Positions 38,470 to 51,524 of a stretch of 64,000 nucleotides of DNA are shown here, in pieces (position 1 is the first letter of the stretch; every line of letters begins with the position of its first letter). Location: the NCBI GenBank assembly GCA_044226015.1, contig JBGAHS010000011.1, positions 160,001 to 224,000 on the forward strand. The letters are read 5' to 3'. The notes under the pieces were generated by a model, which had not been told where the DNA came from, searched no databases, and was given only the letters and a program-made list of their open reading frames with translations. Position numbers and translations under genes: made by a program. This DNA comes from Candidatus Obscuribacteraceae bacterium. Lineage in GTDB: Bacteria > Cyanobacteriota > Vampirovibrionia > Obscuribacterales > Obscuribacteraceae.

Positions 38470-41307
38470 CTATTTTTTGTCTGCCGCCAGTGCTTCCGCG
38501 CAATAGTCACAGTATTCAGGATAGCTAGTATCCGCGCCTACTTTCTCGGAGAACTTCCAGCAGCGTCCGCATTTCACTCCATTTGCAGGAAGAACTACTA
38601 CACGCACACCTTCCTCAGATATGTCGGCAAGATATCCATTACCAGAGGCAAAGTCTTTTCCGTTTTCCAAGATTTCTGCCTGGGAGGTGATGAAGAACCC
38701 TGTCAAATTATCCTGAAGCGTTGACAACTTATCGACAAGCTCAGGGCTATCGACCTTCAGCTTCACCTGAGCTTGCAACGAGCTACCGATTTTGCCGGCA
38801 CCACGGGCGGTTTCAAGCGCTTTATTGACGACATAACGCACGCCAATTAAATCTTCCCAGAATGCGTCAAGCTCAGGCTTGTGATATTCCTTTTTGGCGT
38901 CAGGAAACTCTAGCAATAAAACACTGTCGGACTCTTCCTTCAGCGCAGCCGGAGTATGGGCAAAAATGTCCTCCGCCAGATGTGGTGTAACCGGAGCCAG
39001 CATGCAAGTGAGAGCCTTGAGCACTTCATAGAGTACAGTTTGAACGGCTCTTCGCTTAACAGATTTCTTCGACGCAGTGTAAAGAGTGTCTTTCACCACA
39101 TCAAAATAGAGTGCAGAAAGATCCACATTGCAGAAGTTATTCAAAACTTGATAGTACTTGAAGAACTCATAGCGATCAAAATCCTTCTGCAGGTTGACCA
39201 ATACTTCTTGCAAGCGATGCAAGATGTATTTATCTAGTGGTCCCAGTTCCTCGTAGCTCACGCAGTCTTTGGGATCAAATTCATGCAGATTGCCCAGCAA
39301 AAAGCGAACTGTATTTCTCAGCTTCTTATACACTTCAGCAAGCTGAGCCAACATATTTTTTCCGATAGGTATGTCATCGGTGTAATTAACAGATGCAACC
39401 CACAATCGAAGAACATCAACACCATACTGCTTGATCACGTCTTCGGGATCAACAACATTGCCAACAGATTTGGACATTTTGCGACCGCTTTCATCCACAA
39501 CGAAGCCATGGGTCAAAACGGTCTTGTATGGAGCACGATTGTGCACCGCTACGCTGGTCAGCAGAGAACTTTGGAACCACCCCCGGTGCTGGTCGCTGCC
39601 TTCCAGGTACATCTCACATGGAGTTCCACGAAGTTCTGGACGAACATCAAGAACGGCAGAATGTGTGGTTCCGGAATCAAACCAGACATCCATGATATCC
39701 ATTTCTTTGGTGAATTCAGTGCCACCATCAGGACATTTGTAGTCTTTTCCAAGGAAATAGGAAGGTTCATGCTCCCACCAGGCATCAGACCCTTCTTTTT
39801 CAAAAACATCTGCGACGCGGTTGATCACGTCTTCCAGTAGCAATGGCTTTCCGGTCTTCGTAGAATAGAAGACTGGAATTGGAACGCCCCAAGATCTTTG
39901 ACGGCTGATACACCAGTCAGAACGGTTTTCCACCATGTTATAGATGCGATTACGACCGCTAGGAGGCAACCACTCTACGGTATCGATTGCAGCAAGCGCC
40001 TGTTTTCTAAAACCATCAACAGAGGCAAACCATTGCTCAGTTGCTCTGAAGATCAGTGGCTTCTTACAGCGCCAACAATGAGGATAGCTGTGCGTAGTTT
40101 TTGAGTGATTTAGCAGCTTGCCAATCTCGGTGAGATGCTCGATTATCGGTTGATTAGCTTTATCGTAGCGTAATCCAGCAAACTGCCCACCTTCGTCGGT
40201 GAAAACACCACGACCATCAACTGGAGACACAACACCAATTTTGTACTTATTGCCGAGCAGGAAGTCCTCAGGACCGTGTCCTGGTGCTGTATGAACGCAA
40301 CCAGTACCGGTGTCAGCAGTAACGTGATCGCCCAACATGACTAAACTGGTTCTATCGATAAATGGATGAGTACATTCAATGAGATCCATGTTACGTCCAC
40401 GAACGCAGGCAAGTTCCTCGGCCTCAGATTCTTCAATTTTCGCTGCTGATAGCACTTCGCCCTTCAAAGACTCGCACATCACGAGCACACCATGTTCTTT
40501 TGTTTTCATGAACAAATAATTGAAATCAGGGTGAATCGCGACACCAAGATTCGCAGGAAGAGTCCATGGGGTCGTCGTCCAGATAACAAAACTGATCTCT
40601 TTCTCTGCCTGAACGGCTTCCGGCAATTTCTTCTTTTCGGAATCTTTCACTGCAAATTTGACAAACACCGCATCGGAAGTGTGGTCAGCATACTCAACCT
40701 CCGCCTCAGCAAGTGCTGTTTCGCAATTTGGACACCACGAGACAGGCTTCAGCCCCTTATATAGATAACCAGCAGCAGCCATCTTACCAAACACGCGAAT
40801 CTGCGCCGCTTCAAACTCGGGCGCCAATGTGATGTATGGGTGCTCCCAATCGCCCCAGACACCCAGCCGCTTGAAGTTAGCTTCCTGTCCTTTGAGATTG
40901 TTCAAAGCGAAATCTTTGCAGCGCTTGCGCAGCTCAATCACTGAGATTGAATGCCTGCCACCTTTAACATCTTTCAAGGCAGCATTTTCGATAGGCAAAC
41001 CGTGGCTGTCATAGCCGGGCACATAAGGAGAATAAAATCCGCGCATCGCCTTGTATTTAGTGACGATGTCTTTCAATATCTTATTTAGCGCAGTGCCGAT
41101 GTGAATTTTGCTAGCGCTCAAGTATGGAGGTCCATCGTGTAGTACGAATTTTGGGTTCGCTTCGCGCTTTTTCAAGTTTTTGAAGTAGACATCTTTGTCG
41201 AGCCACATCTTCTGAATTTCCGGCTCTCTCACAGTACTATTCGCCTTCATCGGGAATGAAGTCTGAGGCAGATTGACGGGTGGTTTCTCGCTTTTTTCAC
41301 TACTCAT
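38470..41307 (-). CDS. ileS: Isoleucine--tRNA ligase (type 1, C-terminal Zn finger)
   Basis: LHDGPPY, HIGT (HIGH variant), WTTTPWTLP, GTGCVHTAPGHG, DWCISRQR, EGSDQHRGWF, KMSKS and KCGRCW..CDYC. Confidence 0.97.
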   Translation of the reverse strand: MSSEKSEKPPVNLPQTSFPMKANSTVREPEIQKMWLDKDVYFKNLKKREANPKFVLHDGPPYLSASKIHIGTALNKILKDIVTKYKAMRGFYSPYVPGYDSHGLPIENAALKDVKGGRHSISVIELRKRCKDFALNNLKGQEANFKRLGVWGDWEHPYITLAPEFEAAQIRVFGKMAAAGYLYKGLKPVSWCPNCETALAEAEVEYADHTSDAVFVKFAVKDSEKKKLPEAVQAEKEISFVIWTTTPWTLPANLGVAIHPDFNYLFMKTKEHGVLVMCESLKGEVLSAAKIEESEAEELACVRGRNMDLIECTHPFIDRTSLVMLGDHVTADTGTGCVHTAPGHGPEDFLLGNKYKIGVVSPVDGRGVFTDEGGQFAGLRYDKANQPIIEHLTEIGKLLNHSKTTHSYPHCWRCKKPLIFRATEQWFASVDGFRKQALAAIDTVEWLPPSGRNRIYNMVENRSDWCISRQRSWGVPIPVFYSTKTGKPLLLEDVINRVADVFEKEGSDAWWEHEPSYFLGKDYKCPDGGTEFTKEMDIMDVWFDSGTTHSAVLDVRPELRGTPCEMYLEGSDQHRGWFQSSLLTSVAVHNRAPYKTVLTHGFVVDESGRKMSKSVGNVVDPEDVIKQYGVDVLRLWVASVNYTDDIPIGKNMLAQLAEVYKKLRNTVRFLLGNLHEFDPKDCVSYEELGPLDKYILHRLQEVLVNLQKDFDRYEFFKYYQVLNNFCNVDLSALYFDVVKDTLYTASKKSVKRRAVQTVLYEVLKALTCMLAPVTPHLAEDIFAHTPAALKEESDSVLLLEFPDAKKEYHKPELDAFWEDLIGVRYVVNKALETARGAGKIGSSLQAQVKLKVDSPELVDKLSTLQDNLTGFFITSQAEILENGKDFASGNGYLADISEEGVRVVVLPANGVKCGRCWKFSEKVGADTSYPEYCDYCAEALAADKK

Positions 41308-41346: not shown

Positions 41347-41371
41347 AAAAAATCCAGCGGCTAGCGCTGGA
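41347..41371 (-). terminator. Attenuator terminator in the ileS leader
   Basis: On -: TCCAGCG-CTAGC-CGCTGGA-TTTTTT, ending about 40 nt before the ileS ATG. Confidence 0.85.
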
Positions 41372-41401
41372 GCGAATTAGTTGAATTCCTCTCCAGCAAG
41401 T

Positions 41402-41440
41402 TCAATTACTAATAATGGCTATCGAAACAACTAAACGCAC
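41402..41440 (-). CDS. ileS leader peptide MRLVVSIAIISN (12 aa)
   Basis: GGAGGA-ATC-GTG CGT TTA GTT GTT TCG ATA GCC ATT ATT AGT AAT TGA. Three Ile codons at positions 7, 9 and 10. Confidence 0.8.
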   Translation of the reverse strand: MRLVVSIAIISN

Positions 41441-41477
41441 GATTCCTCCAGAGCAAGGCTCTGATATGAAGAGATTC

Positions 41478-41505
41478 CTTATATTGAAACCCATGCCCTT
41501 GTCAA
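41478..41505 (-). promoter_or_regulatory. Sigma70-type promoter for the ileS leader
   Basis: TTGACA (41505-41500), 16-nt spacer, TATAAG (41483-41478). Confidence 0.7.
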
Positions 41506-41857
41506 TATCAACTTATTAGCCCTGCATTTTTACACTTCGCTACGCCCGAAACTTAAAGCTCTTCTTTCCAGCCAACGGTTTTGCGACTTCACTCCTAGAC
41601 TTTTTGTTGGCAAGCGTCGGTTGAAGCACCATATTTGGTAGCAAATAACGGAAGCTGAACAAGCATTGGTCAGTTCGCTGACTGTGACTCTATGCCGAAT
41701 AGAGAGATTCGCCCAAAGCTTTGACTCAAGACTAGTCTGAGCGATTGAACCCCATTGCAGAAAACTTAGACATAGTGCAAGTTTCTGAGCGGGCAAGAGG
41801 GTAAAATTATCGGACAGGTTCTCCTGTATCATTCGTTCACTGAAAGGAAGCAAGAAC

Positions 41858-42673
41858 ATGAGTCTAGACCAGGTCAAGAAAGTAGCTCACAACGCCGCAG
41901 AATCAGCCGGGGCAATTCTGACCAGCAAGTTGGGGAAACTAAGCGGAATAGACTACAAAGGTGCCTTCAATCTCGTTACCGAGGCGGACAAGCAGTCTGA
42001 AGCCGAGGTGATTAGAATCATCAGAGAATCATTTCCCGATCATCAAATACTGGGCGAGGAATCAGGCGCCCACCAAAGTTCATCGAAATGCAGATGGATA
42101 ATAGACCCGCTAGATGGAACAACGAACTTTGCGCATAGTTATCCCTTTTTTGCTGTCTCTATTGGCTTTGAGGAAGATGGCAAAATGCAATATGGATTGG
42201 TGTATAACCCCGTTTCAAAAGAGTTGTTTCAAGCGCAACGAGGCTGTGGAGCATTTGTGGGTGAAACAAAATTACAGGTTTCGAAAGTTAGCAAATTATC
42301 CGAAAGCCTATTAGCAACAGGATTTCCCCCAGACACAGAAACAGCAAAATTCCCTAATATGAAGGAATTTCATACGCTTACGAATCTATGCCATGGAGTT
42401 CGCCGAGATGGATCAGCAGCACTTGATCTGTGTTTTGTGGCAGCAGGCAGAAGTGATGGATTCTGGGAATTCAAGCTCAGCCCGTGGGATCTCGCGGCAG
42501 GTACACTGATAATTGAGGAAGCCGGCGGCAAAGTCAGTTCACCCTGCGGTGGTCCCTTCGTATTGGATTCTGGGCATGTCCTGGCGTCTAACGGTCTTAT
42601 TCATGAGGAAATGATTCAAGTCCTTAACTCATGCCACAAGGACCTCGGAAATTCTCTAAGCTGCAAGGTCTAA
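41858..42673 (+). CDS. suhB: Inositol monophosphatase family protein
   Basis: LVTEAD, GEE, WIIDPLDGTTNF, GSAALDLC.VA.G and WDLAAG.LI.EEAGG. Confidence 0.93.
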   Translation: MSLDQVKKVAHNAAESAGAILTSKLGKLSGIDYKGAFNLVTEADKQSEAEVIRIIRESFPDHQILGEESGAHQSSSKCRWIIDPLDGTTNFAHSYPFFAVSIGFEEDGKMQYGLVYNPVSKELFQAQRGCGAFVGETKLQVSKVSKLSESLLATGFPPDTETAKFPNMKEFHTLTNLCHGVRRDGSAALDLCFVAAGRSDGFWEFKLSPWDLAAGTLIIEEAGGKVSSPCGGPFVLDSGHVLASNGLIHEEMIQVLNSCHKDLGNSLSCKV

Positions 42674-48758: not shown

Positions 48759-48938
48759 CTTTGTGTCTTTTACACGAATTTCACGGGACCATCTCTATGA
48801 TTGTTTTGCGAATCGTTTTTCAATTCAAAAAAAATTGCTGCAAACGGAGCGGGGCTTTGCACAAATGCATCAATGTTCGCTGTTGAATTGAAGGTTAAAA
48901 CGAAAGAAGCATGGCTTGGCGAGCGAGGACAATATCAA

Positions 48939-49352
48939 ATGGATAACAAGAACGGCGAACAAACCAGACAATGGTTTGTATCAGGTCTGCTTCTATTAGT
49001 TTTCGGCATAATTTTGTTTTGCTCAGACGCCTTTATCATTGGCATTCCGATGATGCTTATGGGAATTGTCATCGCAGCAATAGGATATGAGAAAACCTGG
49101 CAAACTGGCTATTCCTTGCGATTTCCCACTAGCAGCAGATCAAGCATAAGGAGCATAGATGGAACTATTGATTCAGGACGACACAAAAAAGTATCTGATG
49201 TAACCGTTAGTCCCTCCAAGACAACAAGCACTTCAATCAATCCCTCCGTAGCAGCCAATCCCTCAGCAGCGAATCCTTCCGCAGCGAATCCTTCCGCAGC
49301 GAATCCTTCCGCAGCGAATCCTTCAGCAGCAAAGCCTACGAGCCAAAACTAA
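48939..49352 (+). CDS. Small two-TM membrane protein with NPSAA-repeat tail
   Basis: GAGGA RBS before ATG 48939. Two hydrophobic segments and a repeat C-terminus. Confidence 0.7.
   Translation: MDNKNGEQTRQWFVSGLLLLVFGIILFCSDAFIIGIPMMLMGIVIAAIGYEKTWQTGYSLRFPTSSRSSIRSIDGTIDSGRHKKVSDVTVSPSKTTSTSINPSVAANPSAANPSAANPSAANPSAANPSAAKPTSQN
49239..49331 (+). repeat. 15-bp coding tandem repeat (AATCCTTCCGCAGCG): 5 units plus one 18-bp variant
   Basis: Three identical central units (49272-49316) flanked by diverged units. Confidence 0.92.
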
Positions 49353-49413: not shown

Positions 49414-51363
49414 CTAGCGACGCTCTTTTATTTCGCTTTCTATTTCAGAAATAAATTGGTCGAGCGACACGGCTGGCATGTCACCTCCGCGTCGATGACG
49501 TGGTGTCACCATGCCGGTTTCAACTTCTTTATCACCGATTACGAGCATGTACGGTATTTGCTCAAGCTGCGCTTCGCGAATTTTGTACTTGATCGTTTCT
49601 GAACGATCATCACACTTAACTCGCAACAGTTTCGCACGCAATTGTGCGGCAACTTTTTGTGCATACTCATGGTGGCGGTCAGCAATCGGAAGAATAGCAA
49701 TTTGCTCAGGTGCCAACCAGGTTGGGAAAGCTCCTGCGTAGTGCTCAATGAGACCTCCACAGAACCGTTCCATAGAGCCCAGAACAGCTCTATGAACCAT
49801 GATTGCTTTATGCTTGTTGCCATCTTCACCTATGTAGGTAACATCGAATCTGTTTGGAAGATTCAAATCAACCTGCACGGTTGGACCCTGCCATTCACGT
49901 CCAATCGCATCGAAAAGCTTAAAGTCGATCTTCGGAGCGTAGAACGCGCCACCACCTTCTTCAACCTCGTACTCAAGATTGCGAGACTTGATGGCATTTT
50001 CCAGCGCTGTGGTTGCGAACTCCCACTCTTCATCACTACCAAGTGATTTCTCAGGACGAGTTGCTAGATAAGCCTTGAACGAATAACCAAATGTCTTCAT
50101 CAAGAAATCAATGAGGTCAATAATTCCTGCGACTTCTTCTTCCAACTGATCTGGTCGACAGAATATGTGCGAATCATCTTGTGTAAATCCGCGTACGCGC
50201 AACATGCCATGCAAAACGCCTGAACGTTCATATCGATAGACGGTACCAAGTTCGGCAAATCGCAAAGGCAGATCACGATAGCTATGCAAACGAGACTTAT
50301 AGATCATGATATGACCAGGACAATTCATCGGTTTAACCCGATAAGGCTCCTCATCAATAGTCATCGATGCATACATGTTCTCAGCATAGTTTTCTAAGTG
50401 TCCGCTGATTTCGTACAGTTTTTCGTGCGCAATATGCGGAGTGAACACGAATTGATATCCGCGCTTGCGATGCTCTTCGCGCCAGAAGTCTTCAATTTCT
50501 GCACGCACTGTTGCAAGATTTGGATGCCAGAAAACTAGACCTGGTCCAACTTCATCGTGCACTGTGAAAAGGTCCAATTGCTTAGACAAGCGACGATGGT
50601 CACGTCTTTCAGCTTCTTCCAACTTGTGCAAGTAAGCCTTTAGATCATCTTCTTTCCACCACGCAGTAGCGTAAATTCGTTGGAGACGCTCTTTGTTTTC
50701 GTCACCTCGCCAGTACGAGCCCGAAACCTTCATCAGCTTAAACGCTTTGATAAATCCGGTTGACGGTAAGTGTGGTCCGCGACAAAGATCATTCCATACA
50801 TTCTTGCCCTCTTTATCGAGCATCAAATATAGTGTCGGGTTGTGATCTCTGTGCTCTGTCAAAAGCTCAGCTTTGAACTTTTCACCTTGCGATTTGAAGT
50901 CACCGATCTGTTTATCAACATCGGGAATGCAATATCGCACTAATTTCTGATCTTCTTTGACGATCCTTTTCATTTCCGCTTCGATCTTATCGAGATCTTC
51001 ATTAGTTAGCGGATGGTCAGTAATTTCGAAGTCGTAATAGAAGCCATCTTGAATGGTAGGACCAATTGCAATCTTCGCTTCCGGGAAAATGCGTTGCACC
51101 GCCTGCGCCATTACGTGCGCAGTTGAATGACGAAGCAATTCCAACGCTTCGGGATCTTCAGCTGTAAGAATTTTGACCTGGTCACCACTTTCTAGCGGTG
51201 TCGAGAGATCGCGAATCTCACCATTAATCAAACCTCCAACGGCTTTACGAAACAGCCCTTGTGAGATTGATTTGGCAAGATCTCCACAGCTTGAGCCTTT
51301 GTCGAGACTCTTTTCACTGCCATCGGGCAGCTTAACCTGAACCATGGTTTCAACTTGAGACAT
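49414..51363 (-). CDS. thrS: Threonine--tRNA ligase
   Basis: TGS domain, RHSTAHVMAQA, DLCRGPH, RDHR, KPMNCP, RVRGFTQDD and AFYAPKID. AAAGGAG RBS favours ATG 51363. Confidence 0.97.
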   Translation of the reverse strand: MSQVETMVQVKLPDGSEKSLDKGSSCGDLAKSISQGLFRKAVGGLINGEIRDLSTPLESGDQVKILTAEDPEALELLRHSTAHVMAQAVQRIFPEAKIAIGPTIQDGFYYDFEITDHPLTNEDLDKIEAEMKRIVKEDQKLVRYCIPDVDKQIGDFKSQGEKFKAELLTEHRDHNPTLYLMLDKEGKNVWNDLCRGPHLPSTGFIKAFKLMKVSGSYWRGDENKERLQRIYATAWWKEDDLKAYLHKLEEAERRDHRRLSKQLDLFTVHDEVGPGLVFWHPNLATVRAEIEDFWREEHRKRGYQFVFTPHIAHEKLYEISGHLENYAENMYASMTIDEEPYRVKPMNCPGHIMIYKSRLHSYRDLPLRFAELGTVYRYERSGVLHGMLRVRGFTQDDSHIFCRPDQLEEEVAGIIDLIDFLMKTFGYSFKAYLATRPEKSLGSDEEWEFATTALENAIKSRNLEYEVEEGGGAFYAPKIDFKLFDAIGREWQGPTVQVDLNLPNRFDVTYIGEDGNKHKAIMVHRAVLGSMERFCGGLIEHYAGAFPTWLAPEQIAILPIADRHHEYAQKVAAQLRAKLLRVKCDDRSETIKYKIREAQLEQIPYMLVIGDKEVETGMVTPRHRRGGDMPAVSLDQFISEIESEIKERR

Positions 51364-51524
51364 AATCAACTCCTTTCTGCGGCATATACAAACTGCCGGC
51401 GAAGCCCAATCATATCAAAAAGCGCCCTCTTTGCAGCCTAAATTGTACTAGCCGCAACGTTTTCGTTGCATTCCAGACATTTTTACAGTGTGCACCCTGC
51501 CTGAAAATTTGATAGAAAAGGCAT

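Follow-up and report, generated by a model that had tools for sequence, protein, structure and literature searches.

An ileS leader with the features of a classical leader-peptide attenuator is conserved in most sampled Obscuribacterales

The leader of the isoleucyl-tRNA synthetase gene ileS is very probably a ribosome-mediated transcription attenuator of the classical leader-peptide type, as judged from its sequence and from folding models. The element is real, and it is conserved in most members of our sample of the order Obscuribacterales, uncultured bacteria related to the cyanobacteria but non-photosynthetic. Those features of a classical attenuator that can be tested from sequence are found in it, namely a short open reading frame (ORF), a predicted intrinsic terminator, a mutually exclusive predicted antiterminator and the spacing between them. 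It is neither a T-box nor an attenuator of the four-segment trp type. The attenuator would likely raise transcription of ileS when charged tRNA-Ile(GAU) is scarce.

The window (the whole 64,000-nucleotide stretch of DNA that was analysed) carries ileS on its minus strand at 41307-38470, identified by a match to TIGR00392 of 943 bits (cut-off 621). Its closest named IleS relatives come from Ca. Obscuribacterales MAGs of the Cyanobacteriota/Melainabacteria group. The leader is ~130 nt long. The promoter letters, the GGAGGA, the ORF, the box with its complement, the terminator and the U6 tract that were named in a preliminary description of this DNA are all found on the minus strand ahead of ileS, at the following positions.

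41478..41505, minus strand: candidate sigma-70 promoter TTGACA-16-TATAAG (TTGACA 41505-41500, TATAAG 41483-41478), from the sequence
41483..41511, minus strand: alternative promoter register TTGATA-17-TTCAAT, overlapping the other, from upstream sequences compared by eye
41449..41463, minus strand: small 5' hairpin of 6 bp abutting the leader Shine-Dalgarno, from the MFE fold
41444..41449, minus strand: Shine-Dalgarno-like GGAGGA, 3 nt 5' of the GTG, from the sequence
41402..41440, minus strand: leader ORF of 12 codons from GTG (41440) to TGA (41404-41402), MRLVVSIAIISN, from the sequence
41411..41422, minus strand: putative control codons, ATA (codon 7, not conserved) and tandem ATT ATT (codons 9-10, conserved), from family comparison
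41391..41398, minus strand: predicted antiterminator box (T)GCTGGAG, complementary to the terminator 5' arm 41372-41365, from folding and pair counts
41374..41388, minus strand: inner helix of the predicted antiterminator hairpin, 5 bp with a 5-nt loop, from folding
41353..41371, minus strand: predicted intrinsic terminator hairpin, 7 bp, -11.0 kcal/mol, from terminator scan, folding and alignment
41347..41352, minus strand: terminator U6 tract (T6), 40 nt 5' of the ileS start, from the sequence and terminator scan
38470..41307, minus strand: ileS, isoleucyl-tRNA synthetase of 945 aa, the putatively regulated gene, from the TIGR00392 match
41858..42673, plus strand: divergent inositol-monophosphatase-family (SuhB-like) gene, context only, from matches below curated cut-offs

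Because its upstream neighbour, the SuhB-like gene, is divergent, the leader has a promoter region to itself. The letters of the promoter proposed initially, TTGACA-16-TATAAG, are present; its assignment is less secure, as it is absent from the listing of the consensus promoter scan and homologues fit the overlapping register equally well. The alternative aligns by eye with TTGAY...TCTAAT in leaders of the same genus and with TTGAC...TATNCT family-wide. The predicted start site for both registers lies 5' of the leader ORF. Conservation of the small 5' hairpin was not seen. The distance from the Shine-Dalgarno-like sequence to the GTG is short at 3 nt, which is a caveat on initiation there; the leader of one relative (L006) has GGAGG 4 nt before its GTG. 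In three other relatives (L003, L019 and L137) the leader start codon falls ~7-10 nt past a -10-like hexamer, suggesting leaderless translation.

The segment GCTGGAG (41397-41391) begins 4 nt past the leader stop, and its complement CTCCAGC occupies 41372-41366. When Ile-tRNA is ample a translating ribosome would reach the stop codon, where it would cover the box; the terminator would then form and transcription end near 41347. On shortage of Ile-tRNA the ribosome would stall on the Ile codons, ~13-18 nt upstream of the box, and leave it free. The freed box would pair first with the terminator 5' arm, and RNA polymerase would then read into ileS. The additional IleRS would restore charging of tRNA-Ile, closing a negative feedback loop. 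An untranslated leader would also read through, and the ribosome at the stop would act as a repressor. Read-through of the untranslated leader is predicted from the lack of a conserved 1:2 helix. A trp-style 1:2 pause or protector hairpin was sought, and no consistent helix was found among the relatives. The ATTAG/CTAAT pairing put forward at the outset as a further, protecting helix can be drawn in the source leader, where it is worth only -1.2 kcal/mol; it has no consistent counterpart in relatives and is set aside.

The distribution of the element was determined across the order. From 107 genomes searched, 99 gave an ileS N-terminal match, and the upstream DNA was read for 98 (G113 was omitted). 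A terminator pattern was drawn from the upstream sequences without using codon information, and 71 leaders fit it. Of these, 68 have an ORF that stops 12-60 nt short of the hairpin and contains two or more Ile in its final six codons, with three or more in 48 leaders; the conserved Ile mini-ORFs that the preliminary description suggested seeking before ileS in relatives are thus found. The next-ranked residues, Leu (21) and Tyr (16), are other frames of the same ATT run. With one locus (L002), which had been anchored on an upstream hairpin, re-anchored by hand, the full element of Ile ORF, box and U-tailed terminator totals 69 of the 98 genomes and 23 of their 37 genera; it is missing in 29 genomes. 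A generic test that does not use the family pattern was positive in 63 of 94 loci of the order (three duplicates and one short locus were dropped). Among 107 loci outside the order it was positive in none (0/67 in other Vampirovibrionia, 0/20 in each of two samples from other classes of Cyanobacteriota).

A terminator-like hairpin on its own is at chance level, with 2 found and 2.0 expected in 2 kb. Just two of 254 long ORFs with an upstream terminator-like hairpin in the source genome have an Ile-run ORF before the hairpin, and these are ileS and a Ser/Thr kinase gene. At the latter (L185; G000:C11, ~491420-491560, minus strand) the Ile-rich short ORF and terminator are probably there by chance. 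In metagenome sequence the RNA pattern alone mostly finds chance matches: among the 80 listed loci (of at least 118 matches) 78 are unrelated, and the two that have an Ile-run ORF are the only two listed with ileS behind.

On a quick IleS tree of 191 columns the attenuator label requires 12 changes, of which the starred branches force only two, and so no order of gains and losses is drawn. Several loci carry altered forms. Genus g49 (L157, L161 and L167) keeps an ORF ending Ile-Ser-Asn-stop, with a degenerate hairpin that has no U tract. Genus g37 (L115, L123, L133, L142, L152, L158, L162 and L164) has ATATTATT-like runs in a different layout. One locus (L141) has an IIVV ORF and a longer gap, and another (L169) keeps the terminator, with the leader ORF absent. 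Decay or altered output is possible in these variants.

The two hairpins of the source leader were folded with the ribosome represented as an unpaired block. The antiterminator hairpin (box plus inner helix) has a calculated energy of -15.8 kcal/mol, the terminator -11.0 kcal/mol and the additional protector helix -1.2 kcal/mol. The probability of the terminator is 0.00-0.02 with the ribosome on the Ile codons and 0.99-1.00 with the ribosome on the stop, so the switch survives the footprint-constrained folding proposed for it. In the naked RNA at equilibrium the value is 0.64, which makes the untranslated state of the source leader ambiguous in this model. In most relatives the terminator is favoured at equilibrium even with the ribosome on the Ile codons (median probability 0.82-0.96), and only 24 of 62 leaders have an antiterminator more stable than the terminator. 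We infer from this dominance of the terminator in the stalled state that switching would require the antiterminator to form first.

Formation of the antiterminator during transcription is consistent with the folding of nascent RNA. When chains were folded up to the terminator 5' arm, 66 of 69 leaders showed that arm paired with upstream sequence (P>0.5); in 50 of the 69 the observed value was reached by at most 5% of shuffles of the spacer. A ribosome placed on the stop left the nascent arm free (P<0.2) in only 27 of 69 leaders; this is a loose measure, the low number arising because other pairings are counted.

An alignment was made of 46 of the 61 distinct leaders. In the terminator 91% of cells are paired (slid controls 30-48%), with 41 two-sided changes (reached in 0 of 500 shuffles). 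The antiterminator core is 84% paired (slid controls 26-52%), with 16 two-sided cells (1/500 shuffles). The two-sided changes in the core involve only four pairs, which is not above shuffles (86/500), and the core is mostly invariant, its invariant positions being fixed in part by the search pattern. Compensatory change, anticipated in both helices, is therefore strong in the terminator and weaker in the antiterminator core, where the support comes more from invariance than from covariation. The three strands share sequence, and the scope for change is probably limited by this. The inner helix is variable in sequence, and is paired in the predicted folds of most relatives. A U tract of 5-11 T within 12 nt after the stem core is present in 69/69 leaders.

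The spacing of the parts matches the size of a ribosome, taking the footprint to be 12-13 nt; a value of ~12 nt is given in the available part of PMC4833913. Counted from the first nucleotide of the final tandem Ile codon, the box starts 13 nt or more away in 56 of 62 leaders; counted from the first nucleotide of the stop, it starts no more than 13 nt away in 62/62. Leaders with fewer codons after the Ile run tend to have a longer gap (Spearman -0.53, p 0.011, with one leader for each of 22 genera, these being kin and not independent).

This placement of the box bears on whether the hairpin might instead be a relic, or belong to a tiny gene as an ordinary terminator that leaks, in which case no switch would operate and ileS would depend on steady read-through or on a promoter of its own. 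We consider that very unlikely. An ordinary terminator is compatible with the distance from stop to hairpin of 24-38 nt, which matches ordinary terminators of the source genome (peak 18-35 nt), with equilibrium folds in which, for many relatives, the terminator is preferred whatever the state, and with the absence of the element from 29 of the 98 genomes; however, the box is kept where the footprint requires it, and genus g35 preserves the pairing with a different box sequence in a shifted register. The peptide is not conserved apart from its Ile run, and the scan lists no promoter-like site in the 40 nt between terminator and ileS.

The reading frame of the attenuator ORF is conserved. An in-frame ATG or GTG lies 3-28 codons upstream of the tandem Ile pair in 62/62 distinct leaders, compared with 7/62 and 8/62 in the other two frames; the start codon was no selection criterion, while the in-frame stop was partly built into the selection. 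The ORFs range from 8 to 31 codons and their N-termini are unrelated, conservation being confined to the Ile codons and their placement. In 42 of 68 leaders the Ile run is followed by two codons. Over the last seven positions 212 Ile codons were counted, of which 150 are ATT, 47 ATC and 15 ATA. The tandem pair opens with AUU in 57 of 62 leaders, and T, C and A all occur at third positions. Usage of Ile codons in the source genome is ATT 47074, ATC 35762 and ATA 21489, and 4 of 37 in the ileS coding sequence are ATA.

Conservation of AUUAUU could in principle reflect a site recognized at the nucleotide level, either by a protein such as IleRS, in autoregulation of the kind known for ThrRS in E. 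coli, or by uncharged tRNA-Ile acting as in a T-box, with the ORF incidental. The frequency of AUU as first tandem codon exceeds expectation from genome usage, as such a site would predict, although the same bias would also fit decoding by tRNA-Ile(GAU) through wobble, or a requirement that the RNA stay unstructured. The box does contain UGG, as the T-box bulge does, yet in the predicted antiterminator this UGG is fully paired rather than bulged, and a tRNA end binding to it would favour termination, which is the wrong sign. The T-box family (RF00230) has no match in the window, the leader or the source genome, nor in the leader at relaxed threshold, while control genomes were matched in 5 of 14; Rfam as a whole gave nothing in the window at gathering threshold and one irrelevant match (E=6.8) in the leader at relaxed threshold. 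Taken with the starts in frame with Ile in every leader and the varying third positions, this leaves a nucleotide-level site with an even smaller chance of being correct.

The attenuator would sense tRNA-Ile(GAU), which, encoded by two genes, is the only Ile-labelled tRNA found in the source genome. The second tRNA-Ile(GAT) gene belongs to a cluster of ~17 tRNA genes on one contig (ARAGORN, 356333-358584); the genome also has a tRNA-Sec gene. AUA is the codon for only 1 of 124 positions of the tandem pair, and of 61 distinct leaders 11 contain an ATA anywhere in the last 10 codons. On these counts AUA does not serve as the control codon, and the sensing of lysidine-modified tRNA-Ile2 that had been raised for this leader is not a feature of the family. 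The least probable of the alternatives is that a translated, ribosome-gated leader mainly senses that tRNA through AUA, or senses general ribosome speed: the source leader has AUA at codon 7, the source genome encodes TilS and folding indicates that a stall at AUA would also leave the box free, but ATA among the last seven codons and in the tandem pair is not above its level in coding genes, and a speed sensor would not need Ile codons in 68/71 leaders. The core of the original reading, in which an Ile-codon ORF precedes a box that would pair with the terminator 5' arm and the ribosome at the stop or at the Ile codons would set the outcome, is thus supported by the comparative tests.

The classical leader attenuators of E. 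coli amino-acid operons include trpL, thrL, ilvL, leuL, hisL and pheL. The ileS leader shares with these a short ORF with tandem cognate codons, an antiterminator overlapping the terminator 5' arm, a U-tailed terminator and the cognate gene behind. It differs in that the target is a synthetase gene, in having Ile codons only, where thrL and ilvL are multivalent, and in belonging to Vampirovibrionia. Compared with E. coli trp, it has no conserved 1:2 helix and its untranslated state is predicted to read through. A leader-peptide attenuator of a synthetase gene is found in E. coli as pheM-pheST.

The mechanism of classical attenuation is summarized in PMC9413887, in the part available. Beyond pheST, classical attenuators have been predicted for trpS and leuS in Streptomyces (PMC1262725, available part), and His leaders before hisS paralogues in bacilli (PMC2965389, where ileS is not in the main text as far as available). 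The feedback logic acting on a synthetase gene would be the same in pheST, trpS, leuS, hisS and ileS; the amino acid and the phylum are different, and no sequence relationship is expected. The available parts of PMC1262725 and PMC2965389 do not include ileS among attenuator targets, and that of PMC10117765 does not mention it.

Control of ileS is better documented for T-boxes, which precede the gene in Firmicutes and Chloroflexi, with translational T-boxes in Actinobacteria (PMC1262725 and PMC2494555, available parts); in the portion of PMC2494555 available they occur in 0/13 cyanobacteria. The gene and the signal (uncharged tRNA-Ile) would be the same as in those systems, as would the terminator/antiterminator output of the Firmicutes. 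The leader described here differs from them in having no T-box match, in its length of ~130 nt, in being putatively translated and in using the ribosome as the presumed sensor.

A short ORF before ileS has been seen in Caulobacter crescentus. CCNA_03934, termed 'ileS leader CDS', is translated by the evidence of ribosome profiling, has 14 codons, is leaderless and ends 79 nt before ileS; within the text available it is annotated as hypothetical and used as a negative control, with no function assigned (PMC4117421). It resembles the present leader as a short ORF before ileS. Upstream of three Hyphomicrobiales ileS genes there are short ORFs with four, two and one Ile codons and a hairpin that has no U tract. 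These ORFs, in Sinorhizobium meliloti (L449:376-441, four Ile codons), Shinella and Methylobacterium (L451:371-433 and L450:355-420), have a common R-I-x-(G/S)-P-A core, which lies within a GC hairpin. With a different hairpin, no U tract and 1-4 Ile codons, the architecture is different from that of the Obscuribacterales element. They are perhaps a separate candidate ileS leader in Alphaproteobacteria and the counterpart of CCNA_03934. Our literature search, which had most subscription journals outside it, returned no paper on a leader-peptide attenuator of ileS and none on attenuation in Melainabacteria. As far as that search reached, what is new is ileS as the target and the lineage; the mechanism is old.

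Further candidate attenuators occur in the family, ahead of biosynthetic genes that match their codons. At 20 of 21 same-family loci DAHP synthase is preceded by a leader with aromatic codons (Phe, Tyr or Trp) and a terminator; 12 loci show a second leader and hairpin in tandem. At the DAHP synthase-chorismate mutase gene pair (L183; G000:C10, ~285850-286100, minus strand; and L234-L254) the first leader usually ends EVHL-x-stop, and in one locus (L248) three leader units may represent two copies. These tandem leaders are possibly more unusual than the ileS element. Trp leaders with a terminator precede trpE in 3 of 16 anchored loci, these being the source genome (L184/L216; G000:C7, ~767200-767330, minus strand) and two relatives of the same genus (L218 and L221). 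Among 16 regions upstream of ilvD (L200-L215), 12 have Leu-rich leaders before a gene of the LeuA/CimA family (below curated cut-off) and 12 have Ile/Leu/Val-rich leaders before ilvD, placing two putative attenuators in one branched-chain cluster. In the source genome, at 92% completeness, there was no match to ilvB or ilvD and none to LeuA over cut-off; a lone IlvC-family gene is present. Across the order ilvD was found in 45 of 107 genomes and IlvC falls into two score classes, which suggests patchy auxotrophy for branched-chain amino acids. A link between the ileS attenuator and isoleucine auxotrophy was considered and rejected. The attenuator is present in 29 of 42 genomes with ilvD and in 40 of 56 without, and is thus not associated with the presence of ilvD.

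No obvious leader was seen by eye upstream of thrS and three other synthetase-like genes of the source genome, and none was found in the genome scan; the genome also has pheS. The thrS gene (49414-51369, minus strand) is separated from ileS by 8 kb and runs in the same direction; neither a Thr-codon leader nor a terminator was seen upstream of it. Close by, an ORF on the plus strand (48801-49352) ends in tandem AANPS peptide repeats (49260-49352).

A search of the source genome for Rho gave nothing over cut-off. Terminator-like hairpins starting within 12 nt of a stop codon number only 15 of 165 in this genome. Few terminators close to stop codons are said, from the work of Johnson et al. in 2020, to mark coupled transcription and translation in an E. 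coli-like pattern. On balance we lean towards a broader reading, in which the Obscuribacteraceae, within the Cyanobacteria/Melainabacteria group, would have a full and undescribed leader-peptide attenuation network comprising ileS, trpE, the DAHP synthase tandem, the LeuA-family gene and ilvD, working with neither T-boxes nor Rho. The ileS member would be a family-specific, default-ON switch of two hairpins with the terminating ribosome as repressor, and one of several independent Ile-codon inventions at ileS in prokaryotes, none of them characterized in print.

The mechanism proposed for the ileS leader is a textbook one, on a gene better known for control by T-boxes. It would be a second way for RNA to adjust IleRS to the charging of its tRNA, T-boxes being the documented one. 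It would also place ribosome-coupled attenuation in a sister group of the cyanobacteria, for which no earlier report was found. The 69 natural variants of a single putative attenuator offer material on how spacing and hairpin strength set such a switch, and with one leader of 130 nt the coupling of transcription and translation in Obscuribacterales becomes testable.
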